Assembly (NCBI GenBank): GCA_012270555.1 | Contig: JAAXIC010000006.1 | Location: forward strand, 65,374 to 129,373 | Direction: 5' to 3' | Origin: Chloroflexota bacterium | GTDB lineage: Bacteria; Chloroflexota; UBA11872; VXOZ01 | Length of the DNA: 64,000 bases | In this document: positions 4,084 to 59,708 of the stretch, piece after piece | How the letters are laid out: each line of letters begins with the position of its first letter | Numbering within the stretch: the first letter of the stretch is position 1 | Made by a program: the position numbers and the translations under genes | The notes under the pieces: model-generated | Database searches by the model: none | What the model was told of the DNA's origin: nothing | Seen by the model: only the letters and a program-made list of their open reading frames with translations

Positions 4084-5358
4084 CTATTCGATGTTCACAA
4101 CGATGTCAACCGCCAGCTCGTTGCGTCGCACCAGGAGTGGCGCCACGCTGCCCAGCATATCCCCGGCCTCATCGCCAGCAAAGGCTGCTGCAACCAAGGA
4201 CAGGTTTTGCAGGGTCTCTTCATCGCCCAAGAAGACGGTCATAGCATGCACGTCATCCAGGTAGATGTCGAGGCCTTGCGGGACCAGTTTGACGGTTATC
4301 ATGCTCAGTCCGGCTTCCTTCAAACCTGCCACGGTATCTGCCGGAAGCATGCCGGGCATGCTCAGGTTCAAGCCGATGGCTTCGAGCAGAGGCGCGGTGT
4401 TTTCCAGAATGATAACGTCAGGTACAAGCAGGTCGCCGTTGGCACTCAAGACTGTGCCGACAGTGAGCGGATACTGCGGGTCCGCAGCGCCGGGCACATC
4501 GGGAGGCTGCGACGTATCGCCGGAGAACTTATCGACTGCCGCAGCGCCGTCCGCCGTGGGGAAATCCACCGCGACGGTGCCAATCATCGCCAACGCGAGA
4601 GGCACGGCGAGATCGGGCAGCGCCACTTCATAGCCAAGTCCCTTCACAAGCGAAATGACTTTGTCCAGCGCAGCCTGCTCGTAGTTTACGGAAACGCGGA
4701 GCGCAAAGCCGCCATTGACGTAGACGTCGATATCGCCGCCCGGCCCCTTGATGATTTGGATGTGTTGTAGATTGGCCGCTTGTAAGGACTCGATGGCTGA
4801 AGCCGATAGGACTTCACCGACACCGAGTTGACTAATCTCACCCTCTGACAAACCGAGGGTGAACTCCTGTCCGGCAAGGAATGTGCGAACCTCTACGCCG
4901 CTGATGCCGCCGTTATCGCCGAATTGCACGGCTGCTTGCGGCAAGCCGTAGATCTCGATTGACTCTTCAGCGCGCTCCGGCGGTGCGCCCGGGCCGGAAA
5001 TCGGCTGGGCAGCCGACATTCGCGCCGGTGCAAACGGTGTAGAAAGCCCGTGGCTCACAAAGCCCGTGGAAACAATCAAAAGCGAAGCCAGCAGGCCTAC
5101 TATTCCGCCGATGATCAGGCCGACAATGCCCACGGCCTGACCGGTACCGGTACCACCACCGAGTTGGTACCCTGCCTTATAGCCAAGCCCCGCGCCGAGG
5201 TAGAGCAGTGAGAAGAGCAAACCAAAACTCACTAAGAACAGGATTGCCGCGAACTTAGTGAGTCCTCCACCCACCGCTACCAGCACAATCAGAGCGATGA
5301 TGACAAGGACCAACCACAGAATTGGTACGGGCACCCACCAATGTCTCCAGGTGGTCAT
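4084..5358 (-). CDS. Membrane-anchored hypothetical protein (paralog of 5545..6534)
   Basis: Start taken at MTTWRHWW (ATG 5356-5358, RBS GAGGGAAGG). N-terminal hydrophobic segments plus a Gly-rich linker, then a soluble domain sharing IKGPGGDIDVYVNGGFALRVSVNYEQAALDKVISLVKGLG with the downstream paralog. + strand ORF 3952..4770 judged antisense. Confidence 0.55.
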   Translation of the reverse strand: MTTWRHWWVPVPILWLVLVIIALIVLVAVGGGLTKFAAILFLVSFGLLFSLLYLGAGLGYKAGYQLGGGTGTGQAVGIVGLIIGGIVGLLASLLIVSTGFVSHGLSTPFAPARMSAAQPISGPGAPPERAEESIEIYGLPQAAVQFGDNGGISGVEVRTFLAGQEFTLGLSEGEISQLGVGEVLSASAIESLQAANLQHIQIIKGPGGDIDVYVNGGFALRVSVNYEQAALDKVISLVKGLGYEVALPDLAVPLALAMIGTVAVDFPTADGAAAVDKFSGDTSQPPDVPGAADPQYPLTVGTVLSANGDLLVPDVIILENTAPLLEAIGLNLSMPGMLPADTVAGLKEAGLSMITVKLVPQGLDIYLDDVHAMTVFLGDEETLQNLSLVAAAFAGDEAGDMLGSVAPLLVRRNELAVDIVVNIE

Positions 5359-5544
5359 AGCCTTCCCTCTCTGTGCTTGCATGCATTCATGGTTTCGAGT
5401 CTAACGTTCATGCAAAGATACTGTCTGTCTTCAAGCCTTCTCTAAGCAATGAGGGATACCCTTGGGGCGCATAGGGTATCCCTCACCACCTGCGTATGAC
5501 GGGAGCGTAGTGCTTTTCCTGATTTACACTACTGCAACCCCTTC

Positions 5545-6534
5545 TTACGGCAGGCTCACCGTCAGGTCAACGTCAATGCGGTCACGCAAGTGCAAGTATG
5601 GCAGAACAATACTAGCTTGCGGTGCGAACGCAGTGAGGATGCCCAATGCATCGGCGCCGCCCAAGCGGACGTCAGCCAGCATCTCACCGTTGCTACCCAG
5701 CGACAGACCGTCATTGTTGATCTTGACGTTCAACTCGCTGATGCCGTTGTCCGTCATGAGGGCAATGATGGCCGGAGCCAACTCGGTGCCAACCACACCA
5801 AGGTCGGCAGCAGACATACCCAGCACGGAGAGATTGCCGTCGGCATCGTAGCTGACATTGGCCTTGGCCATCAGCTCAATCTCTTGTTGCTCGGTGCCCA
5901 CGTAGCCGGAAGGCGCGCCTTCTTCACGTACCGGAATGGCCGACTCACCAATGGTGATGACCACGTCGCCACCAGAAGCGAGCACCACGGGAACCACAAC
6001 GTCCCGCAAGGGGATGGCAATGCCGGTGAAACCTTCCACCAGATTGAGCACCCGCTCGTAGTTCGCTGCATCCTCGCCAAGGTTTACACCAATGGTGTAA
6101 GCGCCGTTGACGTAGATGTCAATCAAGCCGTCAACGCCCTTTACGACCTGAAGGTGCTCGACACCAGCGCCCGTAAGCAAGCCCAAGGTCATGGCATCAA
6201 GGCCCAGCGCCGGTACAGGAATACCAAACGCGCTTAGCGCGGCTAGATCGTTCGCCGAGATACTCACCGGCGTAGCCGTGCCGCCGATGAAGACGCTAGT
6301 CGTTACCGACTGCAAAGCACCATCGTCACCAAGGGCGATGGTAATTCGAGGCGGCACGATCACAACTTCCATCTGCGCCGCAGATGCGCTGGACTGTGCC
6401 GCTGAAGCGATGCGCGCCGGCAGAGATACTGCCAACAGCGCAACGATTACCGCAATCACGAGAGCGACCTGGACAAGGGAACTGTACAGGAACGTCCTGT
6501 CTAGTGACTGGGTAGGGTATCTGGTAATACGCAT
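5545..6534 (-). CDS. Membrane-anchored hypothetical protein (paralog of 4084..5358)
   Basis: Single N-terminal TM (LVQVALVIAVIVALLAVSL), then a domain with VKGVDGLIDIYVNGAYTIGVNLGEDAANYERVLNLVEGFTG matching the upstream paralog. Same strand, tandem arrangement. Confidence 0.55.
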   Translation of the reverse strand: MRITRYPTQSLDRTFLYSSLVQVALVIAVIVALLAVSLPARIASAAQSSASAAQMEVVIVPPRITIALGDDGALQSVTTSVFIGGTATPVSISANDLAALSAFGIPVPALGLDAMTLGLLTGAGVEHLQVVKGVDGLIDIYVNGAYTIGVNLGEDAANYERVLNLVEGFTGIAIPLRDVVVPVVLASGGDVVITIGESAIPVREEGAPSGYVGTEQQEIELMAKANVSYDADGNLSVLGMSAADLGVVGTELAPAIIALMTDNGISELNVKINNDGLSLGSNGEMLADVRLGGADALGILTAFAPQASIVLPYLHLRDRIDVDLTVSLP

Positions 6535-7106: not shown

Positions 7107-7583
7107 TCAGAAAGCTGGGCGCGTTGCCGGCAGCTCGAGGACGTTACGCGCCTGCTCCAGAAAGGCATCGTCCGTGGTGGTGATGACGCGCGTCGAGACG
7201 TTGCCGCGGGGGTTGAACTCCATCATGAGCAACGCGCCGCGCGGCTCCAGCCCTGCCAGCAACTCGTCGAAAAGTTCGTTGGTGATGCGTTCGTGGGAAA
7301 AGTACTTGTCGCGGAAGCTATTAAAGTAAAGCTTCAACGTCCTGAGGTCCACGATGCGCGCATCGGGAATATACACCATGGTGGCGACAGCGAAGTCCGG
7401 GTAGCCGGAAACGGGGTCCTTAAAGGTAAGTTCCGGCAGGCGGATTTGCACGTAGTAGTCGCGCTTGGGCTCCGGGTTGGGGAAGTAGCGGATCTCTACG
7501 GATTGGATCTCCTCTTCCCCGTACCGTACCCGGCGCCTCTTCCTTTTGCTGCCTTGGCTCTTGTCGGATTCTTCGGTGCTCAT
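7107..7583 (-). CDS. QueF (NADPH-dependent 7-cyano-7-deazaguanine reductase) family T-fold protein, catalytic Cys replaced by Asp
   Basis: DYYVQIRLPELTFKDPVSGYPDFAVATMVYIPDARIVDLRTLKLYFNSFRD...FNPRGNVS aligns to unimodular QueF ([33 protein letters not shown]...ESKSLKLYLFSFRN...FTPRGGIS). The QueF motif and GxPDF are retained, but the thioimide-forming Cys is D (confirmed by re-translating 7390-7480). Start uncertain (7583 or 7637). Confidence 0.6.
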   Translation of the reverse strand: MSTEESDKSQGSKRKRRRVRYGEEEIQSVEIRYFPNPEPKRDYYVQIRLPELTFKDPVSGYPDFAVATMVYIPDARIVDLRTLKLYFNSFRDKYFSHERITNELFDELLAGLEPRGALLMMEFNPRGNVSTRVITTTDDAFLEQARNVLELPATRPAF

Positions 7584-7745
7584 CTCAAACGTCCTCAACG
7601 CCGGTCGCGGCGCGTGTGTATCATCGGTATGCAGCAAGCATGGACATGCCGCAATGCTGCAAATATGACCGTACTATGTCGCTCTGCGGAACGTCAACCC
7701 ACGCTGGAGACCTTTGCGTAACGATGTCCTGAGGGAAGGGTGTTA

Positions 7746-7783
7746 CGCCCTCTCCCTGGGGAGAGGGTTGGGGTGAGGGGGGA
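7746..7783. repeat. Family-B hairpin repeat (CCCTCTCCC-N3-GGGAGAGGG + GGGGTGAGGGG tail)
   Basis: GCCCTCTCCCTGGGGAGAGGGTTGGGGTGAGGGGGG; near-identical copies at 29365, 36884, 51518, and in inverted orientation at 23333, 51643, 55445. Confidence 0.7.
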
Positions 7784-8061
7784 CATCAGCACCGATCAAG
7801 TTCTATTCCTACTGGCTAATAGAATTGCGCAAGGATCCTTTTATAAGGAAACGGCATCTAAGTGGATTAATGTAGGGGACTTGCCGTCGCATCAGCGCAG
7901 AGAGGGTTGCCTGCGCCACAAGGACGTTGGAATCGATGCAGGCAAGCGAGCGCTCGCGTTGCCTGTGCGGTTGGTTGCCCAAGTAGGCATACGGCTGTGC
8001 CATAGCGGATAATAGAGTAGCTCGGCACTCAGATACTGCTAACGAGAAAGGTGAAAGACCG

Positions 8062-9045
8062 GTGGCAAAGGTATTCATTGGCGCGCGTTCTATTCTCGAC
8101 CTGCCCGGCCCGCATTGGGACTTGCTGCACAATGCCGGCCTGGAATTGGCTCCGCCGCTCGACATCTATCGGCCGCTCACGGAACAAGAAATCATCGACA
8201 ATATCGACGACGTGGTGGCGTTCGTGGCCGGCTCGGATAACTTCACCGAGCGCGTCTTTGCCGCCCATCCGCAGCTCAAGATCGTGGCCCGCGTCGGCGT
8301 GGGCTACGACCAGATCGACGTGGATGCCGCCACGAGACACGGCGTCTGGATTACCATCACGCCCGGAGCAAACAACGATACCGTGGCCGATTACGCCATG
8401 GCCATGATTCTCGCCGTGGCGCGCGAGGTCGTGGGCCACGCGGCGATTGCCCGCGAGGGCGGCTTCCACCGCATTCAGGGCGTGGACGTGTGCAACAAGA
8501 CCCTCGGCATTCTGGGGCTGGGCCGCATCGGCAAGTCGGTGGCGCGCCGAGCGAGCGGCTTCAACATGCGTGTGCTGGCGTACGACGTGATGTGGGATGA
8601 AAACGCAGCGGCGGAGCTCGGGGTGGAGTTCGCGGAGCCGGAAGCGCTCTTTGCGGAATCGGACTTCATCTCGGTCCACCTGCCGAGCACGCCGGAGACC
8701 GTCAAATTCGTCAACGCCGACTTGCTGGCGCGCATGAAGCCCAGTGCCTACATTGTTAATACCGCGCGGGGCAGTCTGGTCGACGAGGAAGCCCTGGTGG
8801 CCGCCATCGACGCGGGCCAACTGGCCGGCGCCGCCTCAGACGTCTTCTCCGTGGAACCGCCGCCCAACGACCACCCCTTCCTGACCCACCCGAAGATCCT
8901 GCCCTTCCCCCACGTGGCCGGCGTTACCCAAGAGTCCGTCCACGCCATGGTGATCATGGCCTTCGAGTGCATCGCCGCCGTCGTCAAAGGCGAACGCCCG
9001 CCGTATCCGGTAGACGAACAGGCGGAGTACGAAACCCTGCCGTAA
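8062..9045 (+). CDS. D-isomer-specific 2-hydroxyacid dehydrogenase (PGDH/glyoxylate reductase-like), NAD-binding
   Basis: GILGLGRIGKSVARR (GxGxxG) and catalytic-domain signature ...YIVNTARGSLVDEEALVAAIDAGQLAGAASDVF... typical of the family. Tandem stop codons TAA TAG at 9043-9048. Confidence 0.8.
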   Translation: MAKVFIGARSILDLPGPHWDLLHNAGLELAPPLDIYRPLTEQEIIDNIDDVVAFVAGSDNFTERVFAAHPQLKIVARVGVGYDQIDVDAATRHGVWITITPGANNDTVADYAMAMILAVAREVVGHAAIAREGGFHRIQGVDVCNKTLGILGLGRIGKSVARRASGFNMRVLAYDVMWDENAAAELGVEFAEPEALFAESDFISVHLPSTPETVKFVNADLLARMKPSAYIVNTARGSLVDEEALVAAIDAGQLAGAASDVFSVEPPPNDHPFLTHPKILPFPHVAGVTQESVHAMVIMAFECIAAVVKGERPPYPVDEQAEYETLP

Positions 9046-9051
9046 TAGCTG

Positions 9052-12000
9052 ATGCCACTAGATCAAGATCGCCAATTAGAGATCGTTATCGAACTTCTCA
9101 GCCGACCAGGGCACGAGAAGGTGCGGTCACTTGTCTATTCACTGCTAGTGGACGGCCTGGGAGCGAAGAGCGGCCAAATCCGTTTCGAGAAGCGACTCAA
9201 TGAGGTGCGTGGTCGTGCAGACGCGTTGTTGGGACGTACACTCTTCGAGTTTAAGCGCGATCTGCGGGCTGAATCTGCGGACGCGGAGTCGCAACTTGCC
9301 CGCTATATCAACCAGCGGCAAAAGGACACCAGTGAGCATTACATCGGCATCGCTACCGACGGCGCAGTCTTCATTGCCTATGAGTTGCAGGGCGAAACGG
9401 TAGTAGAGCTTGCTCGATATACGCCTTCCGTTGACGACCCTGGCATGCTTCTCACTTGGCTGGATACCGCAGTCGCCATTCAGCCTGAGATTCCGCCCGA
9501 ACCTGACGCCGTACGCAAGGAACTCGGGCGGGCAAGCCTCTCGTACTTTGTCGCGCATACTGAACTCGCGCGCTTGTGGCAAGAGGTAAAGTCAACGCCG
9601 GACGTGGCGCTCAAGCGCACGTTGTGGGCGGACTTGCTGCAAATGGTCTACGGCGAATCTGTGGATGCGGCTGACTTCGTCAAAGGCGACGACCTTTTCT
9701 TCCAGCACACGTATCTCACCGTTGTGGCGAAGACGATGGCAACGCAGGCGCTTGGCATCCCTCTGCCGCAGCCGGCTGATTTGCTTTCCGGTCAGCCATT
9801 TCGCGACGCAGGCATTACGGGGGCGGTGGAATCCGACTTCTTCGATTGGATTCTCGCTGTGCCGGACGGGGCCACGTTAGTGAACCGCATTGCCACGCAG
9901 GCCGCTCGCTTTCGCCTGCAGGACATCGAGCATGACGTGCTGAAAGGCCTCTACGAGTCGCTCATCGATCCCGAGCAGCGCCACCAACTGGGCGAATACT
10001 ATACGCCGGACTGGCTGGCGGACCTGATGGTGCGGGAGGTGGTGACAGACCCGCTCGCGCAGCGTGTGCTTGATCCCTCCTGCGGCTCCGGCACGTTCCT
10101 CTTCCATGCCGTGCGTCACTTTCTGGCAGCGGCGGAAGAAAAGGGGTACGAGAATAGAGTTGCGCTGGCGGAGTGCACGCGCAACGTCTTGGGCGTGGAC
10201 ATTCATCCAGTGGCGGCACTCATCGCGCGTGTTACTTATATCTTGGCTCTCGGCTCGGAGCGTTTGAATGACAGGGATGAACTGGCTATACCGGTTTACC
10301 TGGGGGATTCGCTCCAATGGAATACGGAAGGCTTTATCGCTGGGCGAGACGTGGTCATTCGTGTGCCGGACGGCCCCCAGCTTCACTTCCCCACCGCAAT
10401 TGTGGCGGACCTGGGCAGCTTCGAGCAGGTCGTGCAGGTGATGTTGGATTCTAGCGAGCGGGACGCACCGGCATCGGCTTTACGCGCATGGTTGCAGCGG
10501 GAGAACATCGGCGGCGATTGGGAAAGAGACACGTTGGCAGCCACGTATCAGCATCTCTGCGACCTTCGTGCGGCAGATCGGGACCACATCTGGGGCTACG
10601 TGGTGCGCAACCAGGCGCGTCCGGTGTGGCTATCTTCTCCACAGCAGCGCGCAGACGTCATCATCGGCAATCCGCCGTGGCTCGCGTATCGCTACATGTC
10701 CGCTGCCATGCAAAAACGTTTCAAGGAGGAGTGCCAACGGCGCAACCTGTGGGCCGGCGGGCGCGTGGCGACGCACCAAGACCTCTCCGCCTACTTCTAC
10801 GCCCGCTGCGCCGAACTCTACGCGATCCAGGAACCTGATCGCCACAGCCTGATCGCCTTTGTCTTGCCCTATGCCACGCTTCACCGCAAGCAATATGAGG
10901 GCTTCCGCAGTGGAGTCTTTGGGAAAGGCGACGTGGTGTTCGCGCGGGCCGCGTTTCAGGCAGCCTGGACGTTTGACGAGTCCGTGCAGCCGCTCTTTCC
11001 CGTGCCCGCGTGCGTACTTATTGGTCGTGTGGGCGCGGGAGGTACACTGCCGCAGCAGGTGACAGCGTACTCCGGTGCGTTGCCCCGCCGCGACGCTACG
11101 CCGGCAGAGGCGGCGCGCTATCTTATCCAGCGACCCGCGCCGTGGCCGACGGGCGGGGAATTGGCGGGCGGCTCCGCGTACCGTGAGAAGTTTCGCCAGG
11201 GCGCGACGCTCGTACCGCGCATGCTTTGTTTAGTGGAGGAAGTTCAGTCGGTGGGAATGCTGGGCAGCGCCGCGGACACACCCATCGTTCAGAGCCGCCG
11301 CACGCGCCAGGAGAAGGAGCCGTGGAAAAGTCTCCCCGCCCTCCAGCAACAAGTGGAGAGGGAGTTCCTCCGTCCTGTCTATCTCGGTGAGTCTATTGCC
11401 CCTTATCGCCTGCTCCAACCGGTGCAAGGCGTCATCCCCTGGGAGGCTGGAAAAAAGCGCCTGCTCGACGCTGCGGCCGCGCAACATTCCGGCTATCCGC
11501 ATTTGGCCGGTTGGCTTCAAGAAGCCGAACGGCTTTGGGATACGCGCGGTGCTGGGAAAATGACCCTAGTGGAGCGCTGGGACTACCATCGGGAGCTCAA
11601 CGCGCAATTTCCAGTGCCATCAGTGCGGGTTGTCTTTGCGGCTTCCGGGACATTGCCAGCCGCCGCAATCCTGAATGAAGATCAGGGAGTCTTGGAGCAT
11701 GCCTTGTACTGGGCCGCAACCGGCAAGCGCGAGGCGCACTACATAGTAGCCATCTTGAATAGCGAAGCCGCGCGCAGCCAGGTCGCTGCCATGCAGGCTC
11801 GCGGACAGTGGGGCGCGCGCCACTTCGACAAGCTCATGTTCGAGTTGCCCATACCCCTCTTCAACGTCAACGATCCTCTCCACCGCGAACTCTCCGCAGC
11901 CGCCGCCCGCGCCGCCAAAGTCGCCGCCAACGTCCCCCTCAAAGAAGGCATGTACTTCGTCACCGCCCGCAAGCACATCCGCGCCGCCCTCCACGACGAC

Positions 12001-12060
12001 GGCATTGTCCAAGAGATCGAGGAACTGGTGACCAGACTGCTCGCTTTGCCTCAGTCCTAA
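9052..12060 (+). CDS. Fused restriction endonuclease / N6-adenine DNA methyltransferase, MmeI / Type IIG-IIL-like (1002 aa)
   Basis: N-terminal PD-(D/E)xK-like motif RADALLGRTLFEFKRDL (D-x8-E-x-K). MTase motif I VLDPSCGSGTFLFHA and motif IV IIGNPPW. ~400 aa C-terminal putative target-recognition region. ATG 6 nt after the upstream gene's stop, with no SD. Confidence 0.65.
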   Translation: MPLDQDRQLEIVIELLSRPGHEKVRSLVYSLLVDGLGAKSGQIRFEKRLNEVRGRADALLGRTLFEFKRDLRAESADAESQLARYINQRQKDTSEHYIGIATDGAVFIAYELQGETVVELARYTPSVDDPGMLLTWLDTAVAIQPEIPPEPDAVRKELGRASLSYFVAHTELARLWQEVKSTPDVALKRTLWADLLQMVYGESVDAADFVKGDDLFFQHTYLTVVAKTMATQALGIPLPQPADLLSGQPFRDAGITGAVESDFFDWILAVPDGATLVNRIATQAARFRLQDIEHDVLKGLYESLIDPEQRHQLGEYYTPDWLADLMVREVVTDPLAQRVLDPSCGSGTFLFHAVRHFLAAAEEKGYENRVALAECTRNVLGVDIHPVAALIARVTYILALGSERLNDRDELAIPVYLGDSLQWNTEGFIAGRDVVIRVPDGPQLHFPTAIVADLGSFEQVVQVMLDSSERDAPASALRAWLQRENIGGDWERDTLAATYQHLCDLRAADRDHIWGYVVRNQARPVWLSSPQQRADVIIGNPPWLAYRYMSAAMQKRFKEECQRRNLWAGGRVATHQDLSAYFYARCAELYAIQEPDRHSLIAFVLPYATLHRKQYEGFRSGVFGKGDVVFARAAFQAAWTFDESVQPLFPVPACVLIGRVGAGGTLPQQVTAYSGALPRRDATPAEAARYLIQRPAPWPTGGELAGGSAYREKFRQGATLVPRMLCLVEEVQSVGMLGSAADTPIVQSRRTRQEKEPWKSLPALQQQVEREFLRPVYLGESIAPYRLLQPVQGVIPWEAGKKRLLDAAAAQHSGYPHLAGWLQEAERLWDTRGAGKMTLVERWDYHRELNAQFPVPSVRVVFAASGTLPAAAILNEDQGVLEHALYWAATGKREAHYIVAILNSEAARSQVAAMQARGQWGARHFDKLMFELPIPLFNVNDPLHRELSAAAARAAKVAANVPLKEGMYFVTARKHIRAALHDDGIVQEIEELVTRLLALPQS

Positions 12061-12095
12061 AGTTGGCAGCTATTAGGCACTCACGAATCCCGCCC

Positions 12096-12124
12096 TTACG
12101 TACCTTATGTATTAGGTACGTAAA
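12096..12124. promoter_or_regulatory. Perfect 10-bp inverted repeat TTACGTACCT-N8-AGGTACGTAA (terminator of the RM gene and/or operator of the downstream cassette)
   Basis: Located 36 nt after the RM stop and ~130 nt upstream of the 12255 start, in an AT-rich stretch. Confidence 0.45.
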
Positions 12125-12148
12125 TCGGGTGAATCGCCAGCAACTCAT

Positions 12149-12177
12149 TTGCAGAGCATGAGAGAATGGAATTATAG
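12149..12177 (+). promoter_or_regulatory. Putative sigma70-like promoter TTGCAG-17-TTATAG for the 12255 cassette
   Basis: Hexamers at 12149-12154 and 12172-12177 with a 17-bp spacer, ~80 nt upstream of the start codon; weak inference from consensus only. Confidence 0.3.
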
Positions 12178-12254
12178 AACTGTACGCAGACTTAGGGTAT
12201 TCTCTAGTCAAATGCAGACTACAGGCGAAGTCTAGCCTTCTGGGAGGAACCGAA

Positions 12255-13055
12255 ATGGCAAGATTGCATCTCACAGTGAAAGGTGAGCTCGGCAACATTG
12301 CTTTCGATTCACTTACCCTGGTGCTGGCAAAGTCTGACTCGATACTGCGCCGTTTTGATCGCGCGGTGTCCGGGAAAGAGAAAGGCACTATGAAGTGGAT
12401 GGTAGCAGGGCTCAAGGAAGGCAATAGCGGCACAATCGAAATGCGCAGTCGCGTCATTAGCGGGGACACAGACTTTGGCGTTCAAGTGGGGTCTCGGTAC
12501 ATTGAGACGATAGACCACATTGAAACTCAAGGAGAGGCCCCACCCGATTATGATCTGGACATGCTCAGGGACTTGCAGGCCATGACTCGTGCGTTTGGTC
12601 GGAATGGTGTGGATGGGCTCAGTGTAAGCATGCCCGATTACAACAAGGGCGCGTTGCTCTCTTGGAAGTCTGATGAAATACTTCAGAATCTCACCGGGGT
12701 TCATTACAAGACGATTGGTTCTGTCGAGGGAAGAGTTGAATTAGTCTCCCTGCATGACGGAAACCGATATTTCAATGTTTACCACGCAGTTACGGACAGA
12801 GCAGTCCGGTGTTCTCTACCCGAAGAACGCGAGGAAGCGGTCATCGAAGACTTGAAACGCAAGCGTCGCGTAGTTGTGTCTGGAGAGATCTCTTACAACG
12901 TTGAAGGGAGGTTGCTTAGTGTAAGTGTAGACCGATATTGCAGATTGTGGGACGGAGATAAGCTACCAACACTCGAGGACTCCTTGGGCGTAGCACCAGA
13001 CCTAACAGGCAACCAGAATACTGAGGAATACATTCGGAGCCTGCGCGATGGCTGA
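12255..13055 (+). CDS. Hypothetical 266-aa protein, no recognisable domain; upstream partner of a PIN nuclease
   Basis: Clean ORF in a visibly lower-GC block. RBS GGGAGGAACCGAAATG. Stop overlaps the next gene's start by 8 nt. Confidence 0.5.
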   Translation: MARLHLTVKGELGNIAFDSLTLVLAKSDSILRRFDRAVSGKEKGTMKWMVAGLKEGNSGTIEMRSRVISGDTDFGVQVGSRYIETIDHIETQGEAPPDYDLDMLRDLQAMTRAFGRNGVDGLSVSMPDYNKGALLSWKSDEILQNLTGVHYKTIGSVEGRVELVSLHDGNRYFNVYHAVTDRAVRCSLPEEREEAVIEDLKRKRRVVVSGEISYNVEGRLLSVSVDRYCRLWDGDKLPTLEDSLGVAPDLTGNQNTEEYIRSLRDG

Positions 13056-13581
13056 ATCCTTTAGTAAGCCCTACCTCGACTCATCCGTCTTTTTTGCGCA
13101 CGTCAAGAAAGAGACAATCGAGTGCCCTGACGGCTTGAAGCGATGGGAGGTGGCGTACGGTATTCTGAAGGACGCGCAGAGTGGTTTGTACAAAGTATTC
13201 ACTTCTACGGTTACACTGGCAGAGGTGCGACGAATCAAGATTAAGAATGAGGAGCTGAACGAGAGCGAACTTGAAGCGGTGCGCAACCTCTTTGCCCACG
13301 AGTTCATTAGTCTAGTTGAGGTTAACCGTGAAATCGCGGAAAAGGCGCAACGATTAGGTGCAACCTACGGTATCTCTCCTATGGACTCTCTTCATCTGGC
13401 AACGGCAATTTGGTGGAAATGCGACGTATTTCTCTACTGGGACAAGAAGCTGGCGGCAGCACTTGGGCCAGGCCCTATTGAGGACGTCGTACTCGCTGAA
13501 CCCTACTGGCCGAGGGCTAGCGGTGGGTTACCTATGGGATTGCAACCAGAGAGTAGTGAGAATAGCAGTTCGCCAGAGTGA
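13048..13581 (+). CDS. PIN-domain ribonuclease (VapC-like)
   Basis: N-terminal YLDSSVF (first acidic residue). Further conserved acidic positions in ...TLAEV..., ...GISPMDSLHLATAI... and ...WDKK... fit a four-acidic-residue PIN core. 8-nt overlap with the upstream gene. Confidence 0.6.
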   Translation: MAESFSKPYLDSSVFFAHVKKETIECPDGLKRWEVAYGILKDAQSGLYKVFTSTVTLAEVRRIKIKNEELNESELEAVRNLFAHEFISLVEVNREIAEKAQRLGATYGISPMDSLHLATAIWWKCDVFLYWDKKLAAALGPGPIEDVVLAEPYWPRASGGLPMGLQPESSENSSSPE

Positions 13582-13734: not shown

Positions 13735-15123
13735 TTACTGCACCACGGAGTTGGCTTCCCACTCGTCGAGCAGTTGCTGGGTCTTGGCCTCGGCCTCTTT
13801 GATGGCCTCGGGGATGGTCTTCAGGTGCTGCCACGCATCCCGGCTGAGTTGGATGTGCGCGCCGAGGATGTCGGGGCCGCCCGCTGCGGTGACCACCCAG
13901 TGCGCACCCGGCATCTCGTCGATAGCGTGGGCACGGTCGGGGTCACCCTGGATGAAGGCCTCGCTGCGGCCGACGGACTTCCGCACCGGAATGCGGTCCC
14001 AGCGGTCGGCCCAGCGGCGGTCCTGCGGCTCCATGAAGAGGAACTCGAGGAACTGGAACGCACCCTCCGCCGACTTGGCGCCGGTGGGAATGACGTTCGA
14101 CCAGCCGCCGCCGTAGGTCGCGGGCTGGCCGTCATCGGGATACGGCTCGAAGACGACGCTGTAGTCAATCTTGGCATATTCCTCAGCAAACGCCGTGTTG
14201 CGCGGCGTGCTGTAGGTATCGAAGAACATGCCTACGCCACCGCCGGTGAAGACGAGCGCCGGCGACAGATCGCCGCGGAAGGCCTGCACGGCGTCCCAGC
14301 CGCCCTGCGCGTCGTAGAAGCGGGTGCTGTGCTCCAGCGCCGCGATCATCTCCTCGTTGTCCATGGTGGCCTGGGTCTCGTCTGCGCTGGTCAGGGTCAT
14401 GCCTTGCTGCCAGTAGGGAATCATCCAACCGGCGATAATACCGGCGCTGCCCCAGTTCGGCACAAAGCCCAGGCGAGTAATGTTCTCGCCTTCCACCGTG
14501 TGAATCCTGCTCGCCGCGTTGTGAAAGTCTTCCCAGTTCCCGATCGGTTCTTCCGGATCGATGCCGACTTCAATCAGCACGTCGTGGTTCAGGAAGAGCG
14601 TGCGGGTGTCCGGGCCCCACGGCCAGCCAAAGTGGCGGCCCTTGTAGGTCACGTCGTTCAGAATGCGGTCCCAGATGTCGTCCGGCTGCATCACGGCGGA
14701 GGCCTTCACGAACGGGGTAATGTCCATGGTGGCGCCCACGGCCGCGTGGCTCTTGGTGATGTAGCGGTCCAGGAACGAAATGTCGGGCGCGCTGCCCGCC
14801 GCGACCACGGTGGGAAGCTTGCTCTTAGTGTCGCCGTAGGCGGTACCAACGGCAAAGACCTCAACGCCATCCTGGGAGGCGTTGAATTCGGCAACCATCT
14901 CGGCGCCAATGTCAGCGTGGAAAGGCTGCGTGGAGTGAGACCAATAGAGCACCTTTTGCTTTTCCATCATGGCGGGCTCTTTGGCTTCCATCTCCTCAGA
15001 CTCGGCCGGCGCTTCACCTGCCGGAGCCATACCGGCGCCCGCGCCGCAGGCCGCCGCGAACGTGGCGGCGAGACCGACGCCCATGCCGCCGAGGATCGTT
15101 CGTCTTGAAAATCGCGATCGCAT
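13735..15123 (-). CDS. ABC transporter solute-binding protein, family 1 (sugar/oligosaccharide type), TAT/lipoprotein signal
   Basis: Start at MRSRFSRRTILGGMGVGLAATFAAACG (ATG 15121-15123, RBS AGGAGAAGGG); SBP_bac_1-like body; paralog of 59709..61127 (FGWPWGPDTRTLFLNHDV vs FGLPWAPTVFTYFYNKDV). Confidence 0.75.
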   Translation of the reverse strand: MRSRFSRRTILGGMGVGLAATFAAACGAGAGMAPAGEAPAESEEMEAKEPAMMEKQKVLYWSHSTQPFHADIGAEMVAEFNASQDGVEVFAVGTAYGDTKSKLPTVVAAGSAPDISFLDRYITKSHAAVGATMDITPFVKASAVMQPDDIWDRILNDVTYKGRHFGWPWGPDTRTLFLNHDVLIEVGIDPEEPIGNWEDFHNAASRIHTVEGENITRLGFVPNWGSAGIIAGWMIPYWQQGMTLTSADETQATMDNEEMIAALEHSTRFYDAQGGWDAVQAFRGDLSPALVFTGGGVGMFFDTYSTPRNTAFAEEYAKIDYSVVFEPYPDDGQPATYGGGWSNVIPTGAKSAEGAFQFLEFLFMEPQDRRWADRWDRIPVRKSVGRSEAFIQGDPDRAHAIDEMPGAHWVVTAAGGPDILGAHIQLSRDAWQHLKTIPEAIKEAEAKTQQLLDEWEANSVVQ

Positions 15124-15410
15124 CGTTACCCTTCTCCTTAGGTAATGCCAATACGCTTCGATCACACGTGCGCGTTTCTTGAAAAAACGCGGCTTGGCTT
15201 GGGTAGGCCCGAATCCCCCGTGTTTCGCACCTCCTTTAGAAGCGGCAAATGCACAGTTCGGATGGAATGCTGTCGCCGCAACACGGTCAGGCTTCCATGC
15301 TACCACTATTTTTAGTCCACTGCGCGGGCTTTGTCAACAGTATGTGTATGTGAAAGCCTGCCTCAGGGCTGATGGTGCATTGGATGGAGCGATTATAGGG
15401 TACAGCCTGC

Positions 15411-17509: not shown

Positions 17510-19012
17510 CTAGCTCGTCACCCAGACCGGCGTCGTCCACGCGAGTTGGCCGTTGCGCGCGGCGAGGCGGGCGTAGTAGTAGTCAGTGGGCCGCTCCGGT
17601 TCGGTATCCATGACGGTGGCGGCGAAGGTGTAGTCCTGCGCGGGCACGGCGCGGTGGATGCGCACGGCGGGACTGCGAAAGCCGTCGGTAAGGTGGCCGC
17701 GGGTACCGGTGAGTAGGTCTGCCAAGGTGTGTTCCGCCGTGTAGCCGTTTGCGGTGAAGGAGAGCGTGGCGCCGACCGGCATTTCCAGGTGGACGATGAG
17801 CCCCTGGGTGGTGGGGTGGCGGGTGGTCACGTTGCCGCGGGTGACTGAGCGCCACTTTAGCTCTTGCGCTGTCTGCTCTTCCACGGCGTGAGGTATCGTC
17901 TCGGCGACGCCTTCCACCTGCTCGTGGCGCAGAACGGGATCGCCGCGGAAGCAGGTTTCGCAGTCAAGAATCTCGCCGTCTTTCACGCGCACCGCCATCT
18001 CCCAGTTTGCGTCCTGGTCCACTGCGGACCAGCCCCACTCGATGTGCACTTTGGCACGCAGGCGGCGGTGCTGCTCCGGCATAACGTAGCTCGGCAGCGG
18101 CGCCCAGCGCCGCCAGACCTTGCTATTCTTAATGACTTCGATCGTGTCCCAGAAGTCGGACCCCTCCGCGCTGATGCTGACCTGCCGCCGGTCGCCGTGA
18201 GTCTCGCCGCCCAGCATGGCTTCATTGACGTGAAACGCCACCGCCATCTTGTCGCCGGTGACGGCATAGGTGCGGCGGTTCCAGAGCGCATCCCAAATGG
18301 CATCGCGCGAGAGATCCGTGGCATAGACCGCCAGCCGGCCGTCGCCGTACGAGCCTGGATAGCCGGAGTGCTGGTCGGTGGAGGCCACGATGCCGAAGCG
18401 GTGCCCCCGCTCCAGCCCCGCCTGGATGGTGCTGTCGTGGTCGCGGGGGCCCATGGTGTTGAGCATGGGATACGGCGCTTCATCGCTCTCGGAGCAGCCG
18501 TGCATGGAGTAGGTCTCGACGATGGGTGAATGCTTCGGGTCGTAGGCGTCCCAGTTGATGCCGCGCCCGCCCAAGGGATAGCCGATGTGATGGGGTTCGA
18601 GGATGAACGGCTGGCCGGTGTCGATGAGGCTCGCGCGCAATTCTGCCAATGTTTCTCCCCCGAGCAGCGGCCCGTGCGTACCCTTATAAAGCACGTGGTG
18701 ATCGCCGTAGCCGCGGGAATGCCACTCGTAGCTCAAGAAGGGTATAAACCGCTCTTCTTCATGAAACGACCCGAAGGTATCCTGCACCGTGTCCCAGTTC
18801 CTGTGCAGCTTGGCGAACCCTTCCTGGTGGTAGTCTATGATGGCGCCAAATTTCTCACGGTCGGTGGGGATGTCCGGCCAGAAAGCATGGCCGGTGACGG
18901 AGGCAAAATCAAGCTGCTGCCGGGCCAGCGTCAGCGCCCGCTCCAGGCTGCCGTGCCCGTAGCTGATGCCGCAGTGGTTGTGGATGTCACCCCAATAGAG
19001 TTGATATGGCAT
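17510..19012 (-). CDS. PHP-like / DUF3604-like metal-dependent hydrolase (paralog of 22020..23225)
   Basis: N-terminus LYWGDIHNHCGISYGHGS (D-x-H-x-H PHP motif I). C-terminal YYYARLA...AWTTPVWV tail shared with the paralog (YYYVRVV...AWSSPVWF). Confidence 0.55.
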   Translation of the reverse strand: MPYQLYWGDIHNHCGISYGHGSLERALTLARQQLDFASVTGHAFWPDIPTDREKFGAIIDYHQEGFAKLHRNWDTVQDTFGSFHEEERFIPFLSYEWHSRGYGDHHVLYKGTHGPLLGGETLAELRASLIDTGQPFILEPHHIGYPLGGRGINWDAYDPKHSPIVETYSMHGCSESDEAPYPMLNTMGPRDHDSTIQAGLERGHRFGIVASTDQHSGYPGSYGDGRLAVYATDLSRDAIWDALWNRRTYAVTGDKMAVAFHVNEAMLGGETHGDRRQVSISAEGSDFWDTIEVIKNSKVWRRWAPLPSYVMPEQHRRLRAKVHIEWGWSAVDQDANWEMAVRVKDGEILDCETCFRGDPVLRHEQVEGVAETIPHAVEEQTAQELKWRSVTRGNVTTRHPTTQGLIVHLEMPVGATLSFTANGYTAEHTLADLLTGTRGHLTDGFRSPAVRIHRAVPAQDYTFAATVMDTEPERPTDYYYARLAARNGQLAWTTPVWVTS

Positions 19013-20626: not shown

Positions 20627-21760
20627 TCACACCTCCACCGGAACCCTGGCACTGGCGAAAATCTCCTCCAACCGCGCGATCACCGTCGGCACTTCGCTCA
20701 GGCGCAGTTCGACGGGGTCAATATAGAAGAAGCCTTCGTCCACGTGGTGGGCGCGGGGGTGGATGCACGGCGTGCCGGCCTTTAGCGCATCGCACACTTC
20801 CTCAGCGGTGGTGCCGGTGATCGCCGGATCCACGATGATCTTGGCGCGGGCCTGCGGGTTGCCGGTGATATCCGGTTCCGAGATAGCGGTAATGCCGGGT
20901 ATCTTGGCCATGGCCTCGACCACGGGGTCAGTTTTTGCGTCCATGTCGGCGAAGTAGGCGTCGCGATCGAAGGTGCGCAGCCACTCCATGGTGGCGATCA
21001 CGCTCACGATGCCTTCTTTTGTCGGCTTCATGGCGCGTCCCAGGCCCATGGCTTGGCGGGCGGTGGCATCGATGAGATCGCGGTTGCCGGCGATCACGCC
21101 GGCCGTAAAGCCGTTGAGGTGCTTCTGGTCGCTGAAGACCACGGCGGAAGCGCCCGCTTCCAGCAGCTCGCGCGCCAGAAATGCCTCCGCCGCGCCATCC
21201 ACGATCACGGGCACGCCGTGGGCGTCCGCGACCTCCACGAATTCCGCGAACGAAAGCTGGTTGTGCTGCACGGTGTGATGGGAAAGCACAAATATCGCCG
21301 CCGCCGTATTGGCGTTGATAGCACGAACCATGTGTTCGGGCAGGGCACGGTTGGTCTCGCCAAACTCCACCGCGGTCGCGCCGGTCATGCGGATCATTTG
21401 GGTGACGGGCGCGCCGAAGTTCACGGCATGGCCCTTCTGGAGGATGACCTCGTTCTTCAAGCCGGTCGTGTCCGGCAGGGAGAGCACGTTGCCGAGGTCG
21501 TCTCCGGTCATGGCGCCGGCGCAGGTCACCGCAATGCCCGCCGCCGCGCAGTGGGTCACCGTGCCGGCCTCGGCGCCGGTGGCGTCGGCAATGGCTTCAC
21601 TCGCTACCTTCAAGAACTCCGGCATGTCGATGAACTCCGACATGGCCTCCATCACGCGGCTCGTCACCTCCGGCGGCACCGCCGCCGCGCCCAGATGCGT
21701 CATCTTGCCGCAGGCATTAATGATGGGCGTCAGCCCGTAACGTTCATGGAACCTGGACAT
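20627..21760 (-). CDS. SelA/DgaE-family PLP-dependent enzyme (L-seryl-tRNA(Sec) selenium transferase-related)
   Basis: Length and pattern (...VFSDQKHLNG... putative PLP-lysine region, Gly-rich N-terminal segment) resemble the SelA-like/DgaE group; assignment by family resemblance only. Confidence 0.5.
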   Translation of the reverse strand: MSRFHERYGLTPIINACGKMTHLGAAAVPPEVTSRVMEAMSEFIDMPEFLKVASEAIADATGAEAGTVTHCAAAGIAVTCAGAMTGDDLGNVLSLPDTTGLKNEVILQKGHAVNFGAPVTQMIRMTGATAVEFGETNRALPEHMVRAINANTAAAIFVLSHHTVQHNQLSFAEFVEVADAHGVPVIVDGAAEAFLARELLEAGASAVVFSDQKHLNGFTAGVIAGNRDLIDATARQAMGLGRAMKPTKEGIVSVIATMEWLRTFDRDAYFADMDAKTDPVVEAMAKIPGITAISEPDITGNPQARAKIIVDPAITGTTAEEVCDALKAGTPCIHPRAHHVDEGFFYIDPVELRLSEVPTVIARLEEIFASARVPVEV

Positions 21761-22019: not shown

Positions 22020-23225
22020 TTACGTGTGCGCAGTAAACCACACCGGGCTCGACCAGGCGGTGCGTTCGTCGGCCTGCACTACGCGGACGTAGTAGTAGAC
22101 CAGCGCAACGCCGTTACCGTCTGCCACCGGCGGTGAGACTTTCACGATCTTCTCCATGGAATCGTCGTCCACCAGGTCTACGGTTACGTCAGCCGCCGGT
22201 TCGGGCGGATGGAAGCGGCGCACGTCCACGTTGTTCCGCACCAAAGTAATGTGGGCGATGGGCGCCGTGCCGTTCACGGCCACGTGGACCGTGCGGGGCT
22301 CATCCGGCAGCGCGCCGCCGTCCGCGCCCATGACGTGGCCGTTCGTCTCGGTCCAGAGGCGAATTTTTCTGCCCGTGGCCGCATAGCAACGGCGGGCGTG
22401 CAGTGCCGCAAAGATGCCCTCGCGGGTGAATTCCTCCGCATAGACCCCGGCGAGGCCGGCGCCCAGGATGTTGCGCCGATACGAATTGCGCGCGGCACTT
22501 ATCGGGTTGGCCGGACGCCCCGGTATCTTGGGGTCGAATGGAGGGTGGTGCCCGCCGGAGTGGCCGGAGTGACTGTCGCTGCTGCCGATCACGCCCACGC
22601 GGTAGCCCTGCGCCAAGCCGTCCTGCAGGAACGAACCGGGCACGCCGGGCGACCAATTGGGATCGCACGCATGCGGGTTGCCTTTGTATTCGTAGGTCCC
22701 CCAATTGGACGTTATTTCCACCACCGGCTCATAGCGCGGATTGAGCGTGGACCAATCATAGGGCGTCTGGTCACGCGCCAGGTGGTGGGGTATCATCATC
22801 GCTTCATACGGCAGATCGTCGAAGGCCTCCCACATCTCATTAATGGAGCTAATATCGTAGCCGCTGGGCAGCAAGGGCGGCTCGTCGTCACAAAAGTACG
22901 CATTGTGATGTCCGTAGGTGCGATCGAGGGGCGAGTTCCACTCGTAGGCCGGAATGGTTACGAACCTGCCGGGATCGTGATACGCGCGGTTTGCCTCCAG
23001 GATAACCCCAAACTGGTCCTCGGTGAGCAAAATGGGCTCCTTCTTGCCCAGGCCGGAAAAGGTGTGGTCGGTGACGGCGGCAAAGTCAATCTCCGCCACG
23101 TCGCGCGCGTAGCGGTAGCAGTCCGCGGGCGAGCCGTCAAAGCCGTCCGGAATCGACTCCGGCTTGAAGCACACCGAGTATTCCGCGTGAATGTGGGTAT
23201 CTCCCCAGAGCAACGTGTAGGTCAT
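22020..23225 (-). CDS. PHP-like / DUF3604-like metal-dependent hydrolase (paralog of 17510..19012)
   Basis: LLWGDTHIHAEYS N-terminus; ...AAVTDHTFSG...; shared C-terminal YYYVRV...AWSSPVWF. Confidence 0.55.
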   Translation of the reverse strand: MTYTLLWGDTHIHAEYSVCFKPESIPDGFDGSPADCYRYARDVAEIDFAAVTDHTFSGLGKKEPILLTEDQFGVILEANRAYHDPGRFVTIPAYEWNSPLDRTYGHHNAYFCDDEPPLLPSGYDISSINEMWEAFDDLPYEAMMIPHHLARDQTPYDWSTLNPRYEPVVEITSNWGTYEYKGNPHACDPNWSPGVPGSFLQDGLAQGYRVGVIGSSDSHSGHSGGHHPPFDPKIPGRPANPISAARNSYRRNILGAGLAGVYAEEFTREGIFAALHARRCYAATGRKIRLWTETNGHVMGADGGALPDEPRTVHVAVNGTAPIAHITLVRNNVDVRRFHPPEPAADVTVDLVDDDSMEKIVKVSPPVADGNGVALVYYYVRVVQADERTAWSSPVWFTAHT

Positions 23226-31116: not shown

Positions 31117-32241
31117 CTATACACTACGGCCAATGCTTTCGGAGCAAATGCCAAGCAATTCCGGAAAAAACAGAACGGCTGGTTTCGGACCGCTGGCAGA
31201 GATAAGCTCCTGCAACACACGCAAATCCTTTAGTCTTCGAAACAGCTCTCGCGCTGACTGCATTGGAACGCCAGTGGCTCTGGCAAAGTCAGGTACCCGA
31301 AACACTGGATACTCAAAAATCCAATCTACTACCTTGTCCCTGTAACCAGAATTCGTCACTCGGGCGAAACTCTCCCTAGTCTCCCTTTGCAACGCCAGTA
31401 TACGGAGTGCCTTAGATCGGTTGTGCCGTGCCTGTAAAATCGTCATCTTTAGGAAAAACTCGCACCAGCCATCCCAGTCATTGTCCCTAGAGACCGCCCG
31501 TAGCCTCTCATAGTACTCATCTCTATAGGCTTCTATGCTTTCGCTAATGTAGAAGTTCGGGCGATTAATTAGCCTTTTTTCAAACATGCTCAGTGGGATG
31601 AGTAGTCTCCCAATTCTCCCGTTTCCGTCAAGAAAAGGATGAATCGACTCGAACTCGGCGTGCGTAATTGCCACTTGAAGCAATGGATCCAAATTGTCTT
31701 CATGCAAATAGCCTTCCCAGGCTTGCATTGCCAATTCAATTCTGTCGTTGGGGCAAGGCACGTAGACGGTAACGGACCCTTTCTTGACGACTATGTCGTC
31801 TCTCATAAGCCGATACTCACCTGGGAGTTTATCTTGCCCCCGAACGCCCTGCATGAGATCAAAGTGTGCCCGTCTGACAATGGCTTGCGTTAGACGTGCG
31901 CTATCGCTAGTCATGGAATCGGTAGCGTTTTGAAGCGCCGTGATGTAATTCAATACCTCGCGCCTGTCGGCCCTTTCTGGCGTGCTTTCGTTGTAAATGT
32001 CTCCTTGTGCCTCGAATAGCAGGACGTCTTGCAGTGTTGCCAGAGTTCCTTCAATTGCTGTGGAAGAGACTGCCTCTTGTTTTGATAGTGGCATGAAGAA
32101 CATCTCAATATTGGAGATATCGGCAATTGTAGCCTCATATGCGCCAATGTTAGCCCGGGCGCTGCCTAGTAGCCCAATTAGGCGATTCAAGTCTAATCGC
32201 TGTGGGGGGAATCTCCCTAGGTGGTAGCGGACTGGTGTCAT
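31117..32241 (-). CDS. Fic-family protein (AMPylase-type) with N-terminal inhibitory helix and C-terminal wHTH
   Basis: HPFLDGNGRIGR Fic motif; SSTAIEG matches the (S/T)xxxE(G/N) auto-inhibitory motif; lower-GC block. Confidence 0.75.
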   Translation of the reverse strand: MTPVRYHLGRFPPQRLDLNRLIGLLGSARANIGAYEATIADISNIEMFFMPLSKQEAVSSTAIEGTLATLQDVLLFEAQGDIYNESTPERADRREVLNYITALQNATDSMTSDSARLTQAIVRRAHFDLMQGVRGQDKLPGEYRLMRDDIVVKKGSVTVYVPCPNDRIELAMQAWEGYLHEDNLDPLLQVAITHAEFESIHPFLDGNGRIGRLLIPLSMFEKRLINRPNFYISESIEAYRDEYYERLRAVSRDNDWDGWCEFFLKMTILQARHNRSKALRILALQRETRESFARVTNSGYRDKVVDWIFEYPVFRVPDFARATGVPMQSARELFRRLKDLRVLQELISASGPKPAVLFFPELLGICSESIGRSV

Positions 32242-37843: not shown

Positions 37844-38123
37844 GGCACAGCAACTGGGGCCGCGGCCGCCGCAGCGGACGTGAACAGGGGTTAACGTTGA
37901 CGGTGAATTGCGTCCACGCTCTTGACTTCCTGCGCGGGCGGGAGCATACTTCCAGCATCGACGAGCGGAGAGTTCGTTATTTCTCGAACTCGCCGCTAAG
38001 GGAAATGTCAGTTGGGGGCGCTTGCGGATTGCTGCTAGCCGGAGCTTCGCAGAAAGCTGCCATTTAGCAGTGATACGTAGCGTGCTCCCGGTGAAGTACT
38101 GTACACACCGAGGAGGTAGCGCC

Positions 38124-59419: not shown

Positions 59420-59708
59420 GGCGGGTAGTAGTATGCATAACTGGGAATATTCTCTGTACATACTATACCACGCATGGCAAACTATCGCTCTTTGGCACTC
59501 CTTGCAGCCATCAAGAACCAACGAAGTCGCACTGCCGGGTACGACGTAGGAGCGTGCACTGGAGGGGGAGCGTGTTTCCGTTGCCGCAGCAAGCGGACAC
59601 AGGGCAAATGGAGGCTGCCTACCGTGAGTCCCGGCGTTATAAGCAGGCGCACGCGTGGGAAACCCCACGCGTGCGCTCGTTTGCGTCGTAGCTCGCAACA
59701 AATGCGTC

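Follow-up and report, generated by a model that had tools for sequence, protein, structure and literature searches.

Introduction

Reduction of preQ0 by QueF is a textbook example of biological nitrile reduction, and the thioimide formed by the catalytic cysteine of the enzyme is treated as indispensable. Here we describe a gene on a 64,000-nucleotide stretch of a Chloroflexota genome (contig JAAXIC010000006.1, positions 65,374 to 129,373 of the forward strand; the whole stretch is referred to as the window) which encodes a homolog of QueF that carries an aspartate at the position of the catalytic cysteine and contains no cysteine at all. The name QueF-D was coined in this analysis for this Cys-free, Asp-bearing QueF homolog.

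The definition of the QueF family excludes sequences that are without the catalytic cysteine (Cys55 in Bacillus subtilis numbering, which is used below unless otherwise indicated) or the other defining residues, and the QueF motif is given as E(S/L)K(S/A)hK(L/Y)(Y/F/W) (PMC5372742). Cys99 or Cys53 shields Cys55 via a disulfide, and such a "backdoor" cysteine is found in about 83% of unimodular QueF (PMC5372742). In Escherichia coli QueF, Cys190 and Glu89, which correspond to Cys55 and Glu78, both adjoin the nicotinamide ring of the cofactor NADPH (reduced nicotinamide adenine dinucleotide phosphate), and the characterised C190A and C190S variants are without the NADPH-hydratase side activity (PMC7317782).

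QueF-L, the archaeosine synthase of Crenarchaeota (PDB 5JYX), is a precedent both for a new function arising from QueF and for a nucleic-acid substrate, as this QueF-derived protein no longer reduces the nitrile. It keeps its cysteine (Cys21) and forms a thioimide with preQ0-tRNA (PMC5485725); its NADPH site is lost and NADPH is not used (PMC5699537). Among natural QueF domains without the cysteine, the closest precedent is the QueC-QueF fusion (QueCF) of Streptococcus pneumoniae, in which the QueF domain has lost the catalytic residue and preQ0 is unusable in vivo, only preQ1 being used (PMC12632869). This truncated fusion is read as gene decay within one species. In DpdL, a phage homolog of QueD, the essential cysteine is replaced by leucine, and the protein has been proposed to be a 7-carboxy-7-deazaguanine decarboxylase (PMC10516641). 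A literature search found no paper describing a QueF with a Cys-to-Asp replacement.

QueF-D resembles QueF-L in being a QueF-derived unimodular tunnelling-fold (T-fold) protein, but the losses are reversed: QueF-D is without the cysteine and has mostly kept the NADPH motif, so that neither of the features that mark QueF-L, the retained Cys21 and the lost NADPH site, is found in it. Similarity between the two is marginal (E=0.25; 18% identity in the fold match). Unlike the streptococcal QueCF, QueF-D is full-length, stands alone, occurs in 15 species and is under strong purifying selection. DpdL offers a parallel as a T-fold protein of the 7-deazaguanine pathway whose loss of cysteine prompted the proposal of a new, putative activity; it differs in its T-fold family (QueD/PTPS) and in its setting, phage gene clusters that contain dpdA.

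GTP cyclohydrolase I (FolE) belongs to the same T-fold superfamily, has a homologous substrate-anchoring glutamate and gives weak sequence and fold matches to QueF-D. The zinc ligands of FolE are two cysteines and one histidine. A FolE identity was rejected, as PF01227 reached 18.5 bits where 27 is required, the NCBIfam folE models scored far below their cut-offs and QueF-D is without the metal ligands, having no cysteine and a single conserved histidine.

A full-length QueF homolog without cysteine

The minus-strand open reading frame (ORF) 7107..7637, from which a preliminary description of this gene was made, is present in the window. Translation, however, starts at the ATG at 7583, which is conserved and preceded by an AGGA ribosome-binding site. 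The TTG at 7637 was rejected as the start codon because indels of 2, 9 and 11 nt in the orthologous upstream regions of relatives break the longer frame.

The same description took the protein to be a homolog of unimodular QueF along its whole length, and family models, the alignment to a solved structure and the predicted fold all agree with this. The Pfam QueF model PF14489 matches QueF-D with E=7e-22, and the NCBIfam equivalog model TIGR03139 (preQ1 synthase) scores it at 108.7 bits, above its cut-off of 86.9. The best sequence match among solved structures is B. subtilis QueF 4f8b (E=1e-18, 102 residues without gaps). This alignment places the segment PELTFKDPVSGYPDF at the column of the catalytic cysteine, and sets ESKSLKLY, FHED and TPRGG of 4f8b against DLRTLKLY, SHER and NPRGN of QueF-D. 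The closest PDB folds to the AlphaFold2 model (mean predicted local distance difference test score, pLDDT, of 88.4) are likewise chains of B. subtilis QueF, with 4f8b at the top (Foldseek E=3e-12) and about 32% identity across the aligned fold. QueF-D and unimodular QueF are of the same length class and have the same predicted fold; unlike QueF, QueF-D has N-terminal basic and C-terminal helical extensions that are specific to its clade. As judged from sequence and model, QueF-D is a full-length unimodular QueF homolog with a predicted QueF fold. Public NCBI and JGI records label QueF-D proteins as preQ(1) synthase.

The column of Cys55 was fixed independently of 4f8b with the C55A mutant structure 4fgc, which has alanine where QueF-D has aspartate (Asp56). 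Similarly, the column of Glu97 was fixed with the E97Q mutant 5udg, which has glutamine where QueF-D keeps glutamate. The reported replacement of the nucleophilic cysteine by aspartate is confirmed by this pinned column together with the GAC codon, which is two base changes from a Cys codon. Aspartate occupies the column in 16 of 16 orthologs (those of 15 Chloroflexota species genomes and the window), encoded by GAC in 15 and by the synonymous GAT in one, and a sequencing error is excluded because all 16 carry an Asp codon. The concern that re-sequencing might reveal a Cys codon is answered by the fixation of Asp in the 15 other species. Among 269 QueF homologs outside the QueF-D clade, the column holds cysteine in 262 and aspartate in one.

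The loss extends beyond the catalytic position. Not one of the 28 members of the QueF-D clade contains a cysteine anywhere, while the count in 268 other QueF homologs is never zero and has a median of 4. This excludes a nucleophile relocated to another cysteine. Since it is without cysteine, QueF-D cannot form a thioimide with preQ0, and covalent thioimide chemistry is, on the evidence of the sequence, impossible in this protein; the earlier proposal to that effect is strengthened by the zero count in all 28 members.

A HMMER search of 1.84 billion representative proteins returned 2068 relatives of QueF-D, the best match after its own cluster being 48% identical. When one genome per GTDB species was scanned, QueF-D was found at 83-98% identity in 15 species, all of them uncultured Chloroflexota, and many of these species genomes are closed chromosomes of 3.3-3.7 Mb. 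The closest relative comes from the metagenome-assembled genome (MAG) SB0662_bin_44, and the SB06xx sample series also gave MAGs of sponge-associated Poribacteria. The carriers of QueF-D are a sponge-associated group of Chloroflexota.

Pairwise comparison of the 16 orthologs by the Nei-Gojobori method gave a median ratio of nonsynonymous to synonymous substitutions (dN/dS) of 0.079 at a dS of about 0.9. By region, dN/dS was lowest in the core (0.034), followed by the C-terminal extension (0.12) and the N-terminal tail (0.35). Purifying selection of this strength shows that QueF-D is neither a decaying gene nor a sequencing error. In a neighbour-joining tree, the stem branch of the QueF-D clade measured 0.26 substitutions per site, above the 95th percentile of internal branches, and the root-to-tip length of the clade was ordinary. 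The nearest Cys-bearing homologs (P0013 and P0014) lie in unrelated gene contexts without que genes.

Other QueF homologs with a changed catalytic column were also seen. A second Asp-type homolog (P0064), with the motif FARDFASGYPDL, is encoded on an unrelated metagenomic contig (L004, 3363-3860) directly downstream of purA. It is 38% identical to QueF-D and keeps Glu78 and one cysteine; no relatives of it were found beyond its own cluster, which makes it a singleton. Five further QueF-family sequences (P0077, P0129, P0135, P0121 and P0143) are without the catalytic cysteine and have Arg, Asn, Ala or a gap in the column, and some of these may be incomplete or may represent the N-terminal module of a bimodular QueF.

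Residues replaced and retained at the reaction centre

The QueF-D clade differs from its homologs at a small set of otherwise conserved sites (F52L, C54F, C56D, E79D and S82T in clade numbering) and retains N36, Y43, E51, D63, K84, Y86, R91, H97, E98 and R126. As placed by the alignment, the changes cluster at the reaction centre. The residue corresponding to Glu78, which is glutamate in 268 of the 269 homologs outside the clade, is Asp79 in QueF-D, and the clade reads D-L-(R/K)-T-L-K-L-(Y/H), fitting the published motif at six of eight positions in most members. The column of Lys83 is invariant (269/269) and is kept in the clade, and that of Lys80 (Lys in 266/269) is lysine in most of the clade and arginine in the window. 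The equivalents of Tyr85 and Arg125 are kept as well. The statements of the preliminary description on the sequence are all confirmed; the change of Glu78 to aspartate had been missed, as had the loss of the backdoor cysteine.

Outside the clade, the Cys53 column holds cysteine in 214 of 269 homologs, and Cys53 or Cys99 is present in 215 of the 262 Cys-bearing homologs sampled. The nearest Cys-bearing relatives of QueF-D read TCKCP across the Cys53 and Cys55 columns. In QueF-D itself, the two backdoor columns are Phe54 and Ile100, so this feature of QueF is absent. Two other features of QueF are present: Asp62, the general acid/base, is aspartate in 268 of 269 other homologs and is kept in the clade as Asp63, and Glu97, equally frequent (268/269), is kept as Glu98 in the sequence SHE.

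As judged by its defining residues, QueF-D is not a QueF in the strict sense, with aspartate in place of both Cys55 and Glu78. By comparison with the characterised enzymes, the two residues that flank the site of hydride transfer have been replaced, together with a protective cysteine that is now pointless, and those that bind the base and the phosphate of the cofactor have been kept. Such a pattern of change looks like that of a re-tuned site and not of a ruined one.

The N-terminal tail of QueF-D, which is predicted to be disordered, carries a basic stretch of eight residues. Seven of these are Lys or Arg in the protein of the window, as they are in 9 of the 11 close relatives scored; the other two, P0010 and P0011, have 6 and 5. 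Most other QueF homologs have at most 4 such residues, and five homologs reach 5 or 6. The basic composition is kept despite the high dN/dS of the tail. A more distant Asp-type relative (P0012) is without the basic tail.

Table 1. Features of the QueF-D locus, with positions in the window.
Feature	Position	Strand	Basis or remark
QueF-D coding sequence (Cys-free QueF homolog)	7107..7583, including stop	-	158 aa
Asp56 codon GAC, column of B. subtilis QueF catalytic Cys55	7416..7418	-	sequence and alignment to 4f8b/4fgc
Phe54, column of alternative backdoor cysteine (Cys53)	7422..7424	-	column counts
Asp63, equivalent of general acid/base Asp62 (in YPDF)	7395..7397	-	alignment
QueF motif region DLRTLKLY, residues 79-86	7326..7349	-	motif of PMC5372742 and column counts
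His97-Glu98, equivalents of His96 and substrate-anchoring Glu97	7290..7295	-	alignment to 4f8b and 5udg
Lys/Arg-rich stretch KRKRRRVR, disordered N-terminal tail	7524..7547	-	composition; pLDDT <70
Conserved upstream region	7584..7697	-	alignment of 15 orthologous upstream regions
Upstream blocks TTGACG; TAGTACGGTCAT; AATGATACAC; then AGGA ribosome-binding site	7697-7692; 7676-7664; 7625-7616	-	
D-2-hydroxyacid dehydrogenase gene	8062-9045	divergent from QueF-D gene	one flank
Type IIG restriction-modification gene (1002 aa)	9052-12060	opposite to QueF-D	PADLOC; about 1.5 kb away
Two paralogous membrane-anchored proteins, no Pfam family (329 aa; 432 aa)	5545-6534; 4084-5382	-	other flank; then rplJ, rplL

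Possible functions of QueF-D

We consider it probable (roughly 0.6) that QueF-D is a functional, ligand-binding derivative of QueF that has lost nitrile reduction. This reading has two tentative forms, about equally likely: the chemistry of the enzyme may have changed to a non-covalent kind, or the protein may only bind its ligand. The suggestion in the preliminary description of a 7-deazapurine-binding protein or of a T-fold enzyme with other chemistry is consistent with the retained base-binding residues and the strong selection.

The equivalents of Asp62, His96 and Glu97 suggest that QueF-D has kept, along with the T-fold, a pocket for a 2-amino-4-oxo-pyrimidine ring such as that of 7-deazaguanine. 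The QueF motif, which binds NADPH, is likewise kept for the most part (both lysines, Tyr85 and Arg125). As it is largely intact, whereas QueF-L lost its NADPH site, cofactor binding may persist. The residues at the reaction centre have been replaced together, Cys55 by Asp, the protective cysteine by Phe or Ile and Glu78 by Asp. Asp56, Asp63 and Asp79 would then place three carboxylates around the position of the 7-substituent, and because of these carboxylates the pocket might favour a polar or cationic group over a neutral nitrile; the aminomethyl group of preQ1, an imine and an aldehyde are examples. QueF-D could bind such a 7-deazaguanine non-covalently and either support direct hydride transfer from NADPH, with Asp56 as the acid, or merely hold its ligand. 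We infer, and do not observe, the identity of the ligand, the use of NADPH and any catalysis by QueF-D.

A catalytically active T-fold enzyme with chemistry new to the 7-deazaguanine pathway is possible, although we would not presume it. Such an enzyme might be a carboxylate-using, cysteine-independent and oxidation-proof nitrile reductase, or might act in an NADPH-dependent manner on another 7-substituted deazaguanine, possibly within RNA or DNA reached via the basic tails.

Several points weigh against a ligand-binding QueF derivative. Retention of the NADPH motif could reflect the stability of the fold or the oligomer, as the whole core is strongly constrained. No neighbouring gene suggests a pathway, QueF-D and the next downstream gene having separate promoter-like regions, and there is no que, tgt or dpd gene in the 64-kb window. 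The argument for a carboxylate pocket is drawn from alignment columns, and the AlphaFold2 model is of a monomer, which cannot show an active site that lies between subunits.

The basic tails allow for a different function, in which QueF-D would be a non-catalytic, nucleic-acid-associated protein: a predicted decameric T-fold barrel with ten Lys/Arg tails could bind tRNA, other RNA or DNA and might recognise a 7-deazaguanine base that is part of the polymer, in the way that QueF-L recognises preQ0-tRNA. The Lys/Arg patch lies in a disordered tail, where the sequence drifts but the composition does not. QueF-L, a T-fold enzyme, acts on tRNA (PMC5485725), and QueF of Synechocystis cross-links to RNA in vivo (PMC12475003); the contig of the nearest Cys-bearing relative has cyanobacterial-looking gene content. 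However, the distant Asp-type member of the family is without a basic tail, and basic tails predict binding weakly. Two unrelated genes, which have a promoter-like site of their own, separate QueF-D from the ribosomal-protein genes rplJ and rplL. On balance, we regard a non-catalytic nucleic-acid-binding role as unlikely.

QueF-D might instead still be the preQ1 synthase of the organism, with Asp56 acting as a carboxylate nucleophile (via an O-acyl imidate) or as a nitrile-activating acid for direct hydride transfer, in effect an oxidation-proof QueF. The score above the curated TIGR03139 cut-off and the NCBI and JGI labels favour this, as does the NADPH motif, most of which is kept alongside all the other residues that define QueF. 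The gene is single-copy, syntenic and strongly conserved, as expected for a housekeeping enzyme, and no second QueF homolog was found in the window or within 20 kb around the gene in the 15 genomes. Moreover, the cysteine of QueF is prone to oxidation (PMC5372742).

Other evidence argues against a preQ1 synthase. Both QueF and QueF-L are described as working via a covalent Cys thioimide (PMC5372742, PMC5485725), and the curators of the family exclude Cys-less sequences (PMC5372742). The naturally Cys-less QueF domain of S. pneumoniae cannot use preQ0 (PMC12632869). If aspartate worked in place of the cysteine it should be common, yet it is seen in one narrow clade and one singleton among about 280 homologs sampled. 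To our knowledge, no enzyme adds a carboxylate to a nitrile. A preQ1 synthase with an aspartate nucleophile or acid is an unlikely reading, which we do not favour.

Symbionts often salvage precursors, and loss of a catalytic residue is a classic first sign of decay. That QueF-D is a decaying queF relic in a lineage that has lost or bypassed de novo queuosine synthesis, similar to the defective streptococcal QueCF (PMC12632869), is nevertheless strongly disfavoured by the selection analysis and very improbable, as 15 species at the synonymous divergence given above share an intact gene of full length, whose core is the most constrained region (dN/dS 0.034) and whose Asp codon, promoter-like blocks and ribosome-binding site are conserved.

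Genomic context

Three blocks upstream of the QueF-D gene (TTGACG, TAGTACGGTCAT and AATGATACAC) are near-invariant across 15 species amid variable sequence, and may represent a promoter together with an operator or a leader element. TAGTACGGTCAT and AATGATACAC are partly complementary, with a variable GC-rich hairpin between them. A structured leader RNA was rejected: for the leaders of 15 orthologs RNAalifold returned -0.09 kcal/mol, pairing was confined to the invariant blocks, and no covariation was seen. Rfam, including its preQ1 riboswitches, gave no match in the window at the gathering threshold, and at E<=1 the region 7400-8100 gave none except a weak match to an unrelated small RNA. 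The gene downstream of QueF-D has a strong promoter-like site of its own, past a gap of 570 bp. Because of its own conserved upstream blocks and this separate site, the QueF-D gene looks monocistronic.

Gene order around QueF-D is conserved, and the pair of paralogs between it and rplJ/rplL is syntenic in all relatives. Both of these proteins have an N-terminal membrane anchor and share repeats (e.g., IQ..KG..G.IDVYVNG). The loci of relatives were read for at most 10 kb on each side of the gene. No member of the que, tgt or dpd families was found among the large ORFs of the 64-kb window, nor in the 20 kb around the gene in the 15 genomes, in line with the earlier statement that the window holds no dpd- or tgt-like genes; the queuosine-pathway genes looked for were queCDE, tgt, queA and queG/H. 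A profile of 74 canonical QueFs, searched against a collection of 5.8 billion proteins, scored 8000 candidates; the 120 of these that were listed, too few to speak for or against a canonical queF in the relatives, included none from their closed chromosomes. There are no tRNA genes in the window.

The proximity of the type IIG restriction-modification (RM) gene had suggested a functional tie between the two genes, in which QueF-D would be part of a DNA-modification or defence system. The distance is only about 1.5 kb, and DNA modification does employ 7-deazaguanines (PMC5699537, PMC10516641). However, the RM gene is on the opposite strand, past the 2-hydroxyacid dehydrogenase gene, and the relatives are evenly divided, 7 having it at this site and 7 not, whereas QueF-D is present in all. 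Since the RM gene occurs in only half of the relatives, QueF-D and the RM gene are independent of each other, and the tie is not upheld. PADLOC recognises only the RM gene and gives no match for QueF-D. Dpd and related 7-deazaguanine DNA-modification systems are marked by co-location with dpdA, tgt-like and preQ0-synthesis genes, and no such co-location is seen in the window (which has no dpdA, tgt or queCDE) or in the flanks of the relatives. A role for QueF-D in defence is thus highly unlikely.

The RM gene is the first member of a variably present block (9052-13581), in which it is followed by a 266-aa protein without family match and a PIN-domain protein. In at least two relatives (L010 and L015), the latter two occur as a pair and the RM gene is missing.

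Other features of the window

A putative lipoprotein of 420 aa (1140-2402) consists of two similar halves, each ending in HGEGD.MCCPT, and has a faint match to Lipoprotein_21. Four SBP_bac_1 solute-binding proteins (13735-15306, 38022-39428, 42714-44102 and 59709-61127), two DUF3604 proteins (17510-19012 and 22020-23225) and a Fic-domain protein (31117-32241) are encoded elsewhere. The ORF at 20627-21760 has a weak match to SelA (E=1e-12) in addition to matches to other families of pyridoxal phosphate enzymes. On the minus strand, the longest ORFs of a DUF2851 protein (58013-60010, 665 aa) and of the upstream solute-binding protein (59709-61127) overlap by about 300 nt; the DUF2851 ORF probably starts further downstream than its first possible start codon.

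Implications for the QueF family and its hosts

The annotation of QueF-D proteins in public records as preQ(1) synthase is very probably wrong. Metabolic reconstructions that follow it would wrongly credit these sponge symbionts with preQ0 reduction, a trap that has been documented experimentally for S. pneumoniae. The QueF-D lineage is a natural experiment on what the T-fold is capable of without covalent catalysis. If QueF-D is active, it would represent a new route of nitrile reduction or a new reaction of 7-deazaguanines; should it turn out only to bind, it would join the rare ligand-binding pseudoenzymes of bacteria that arose from a pathway of tRNA modification. New chemistry, if true, would suggest that the Chloroflexota symbionts of sponges have a deazapurine metabolite or modification that is so far unknown.

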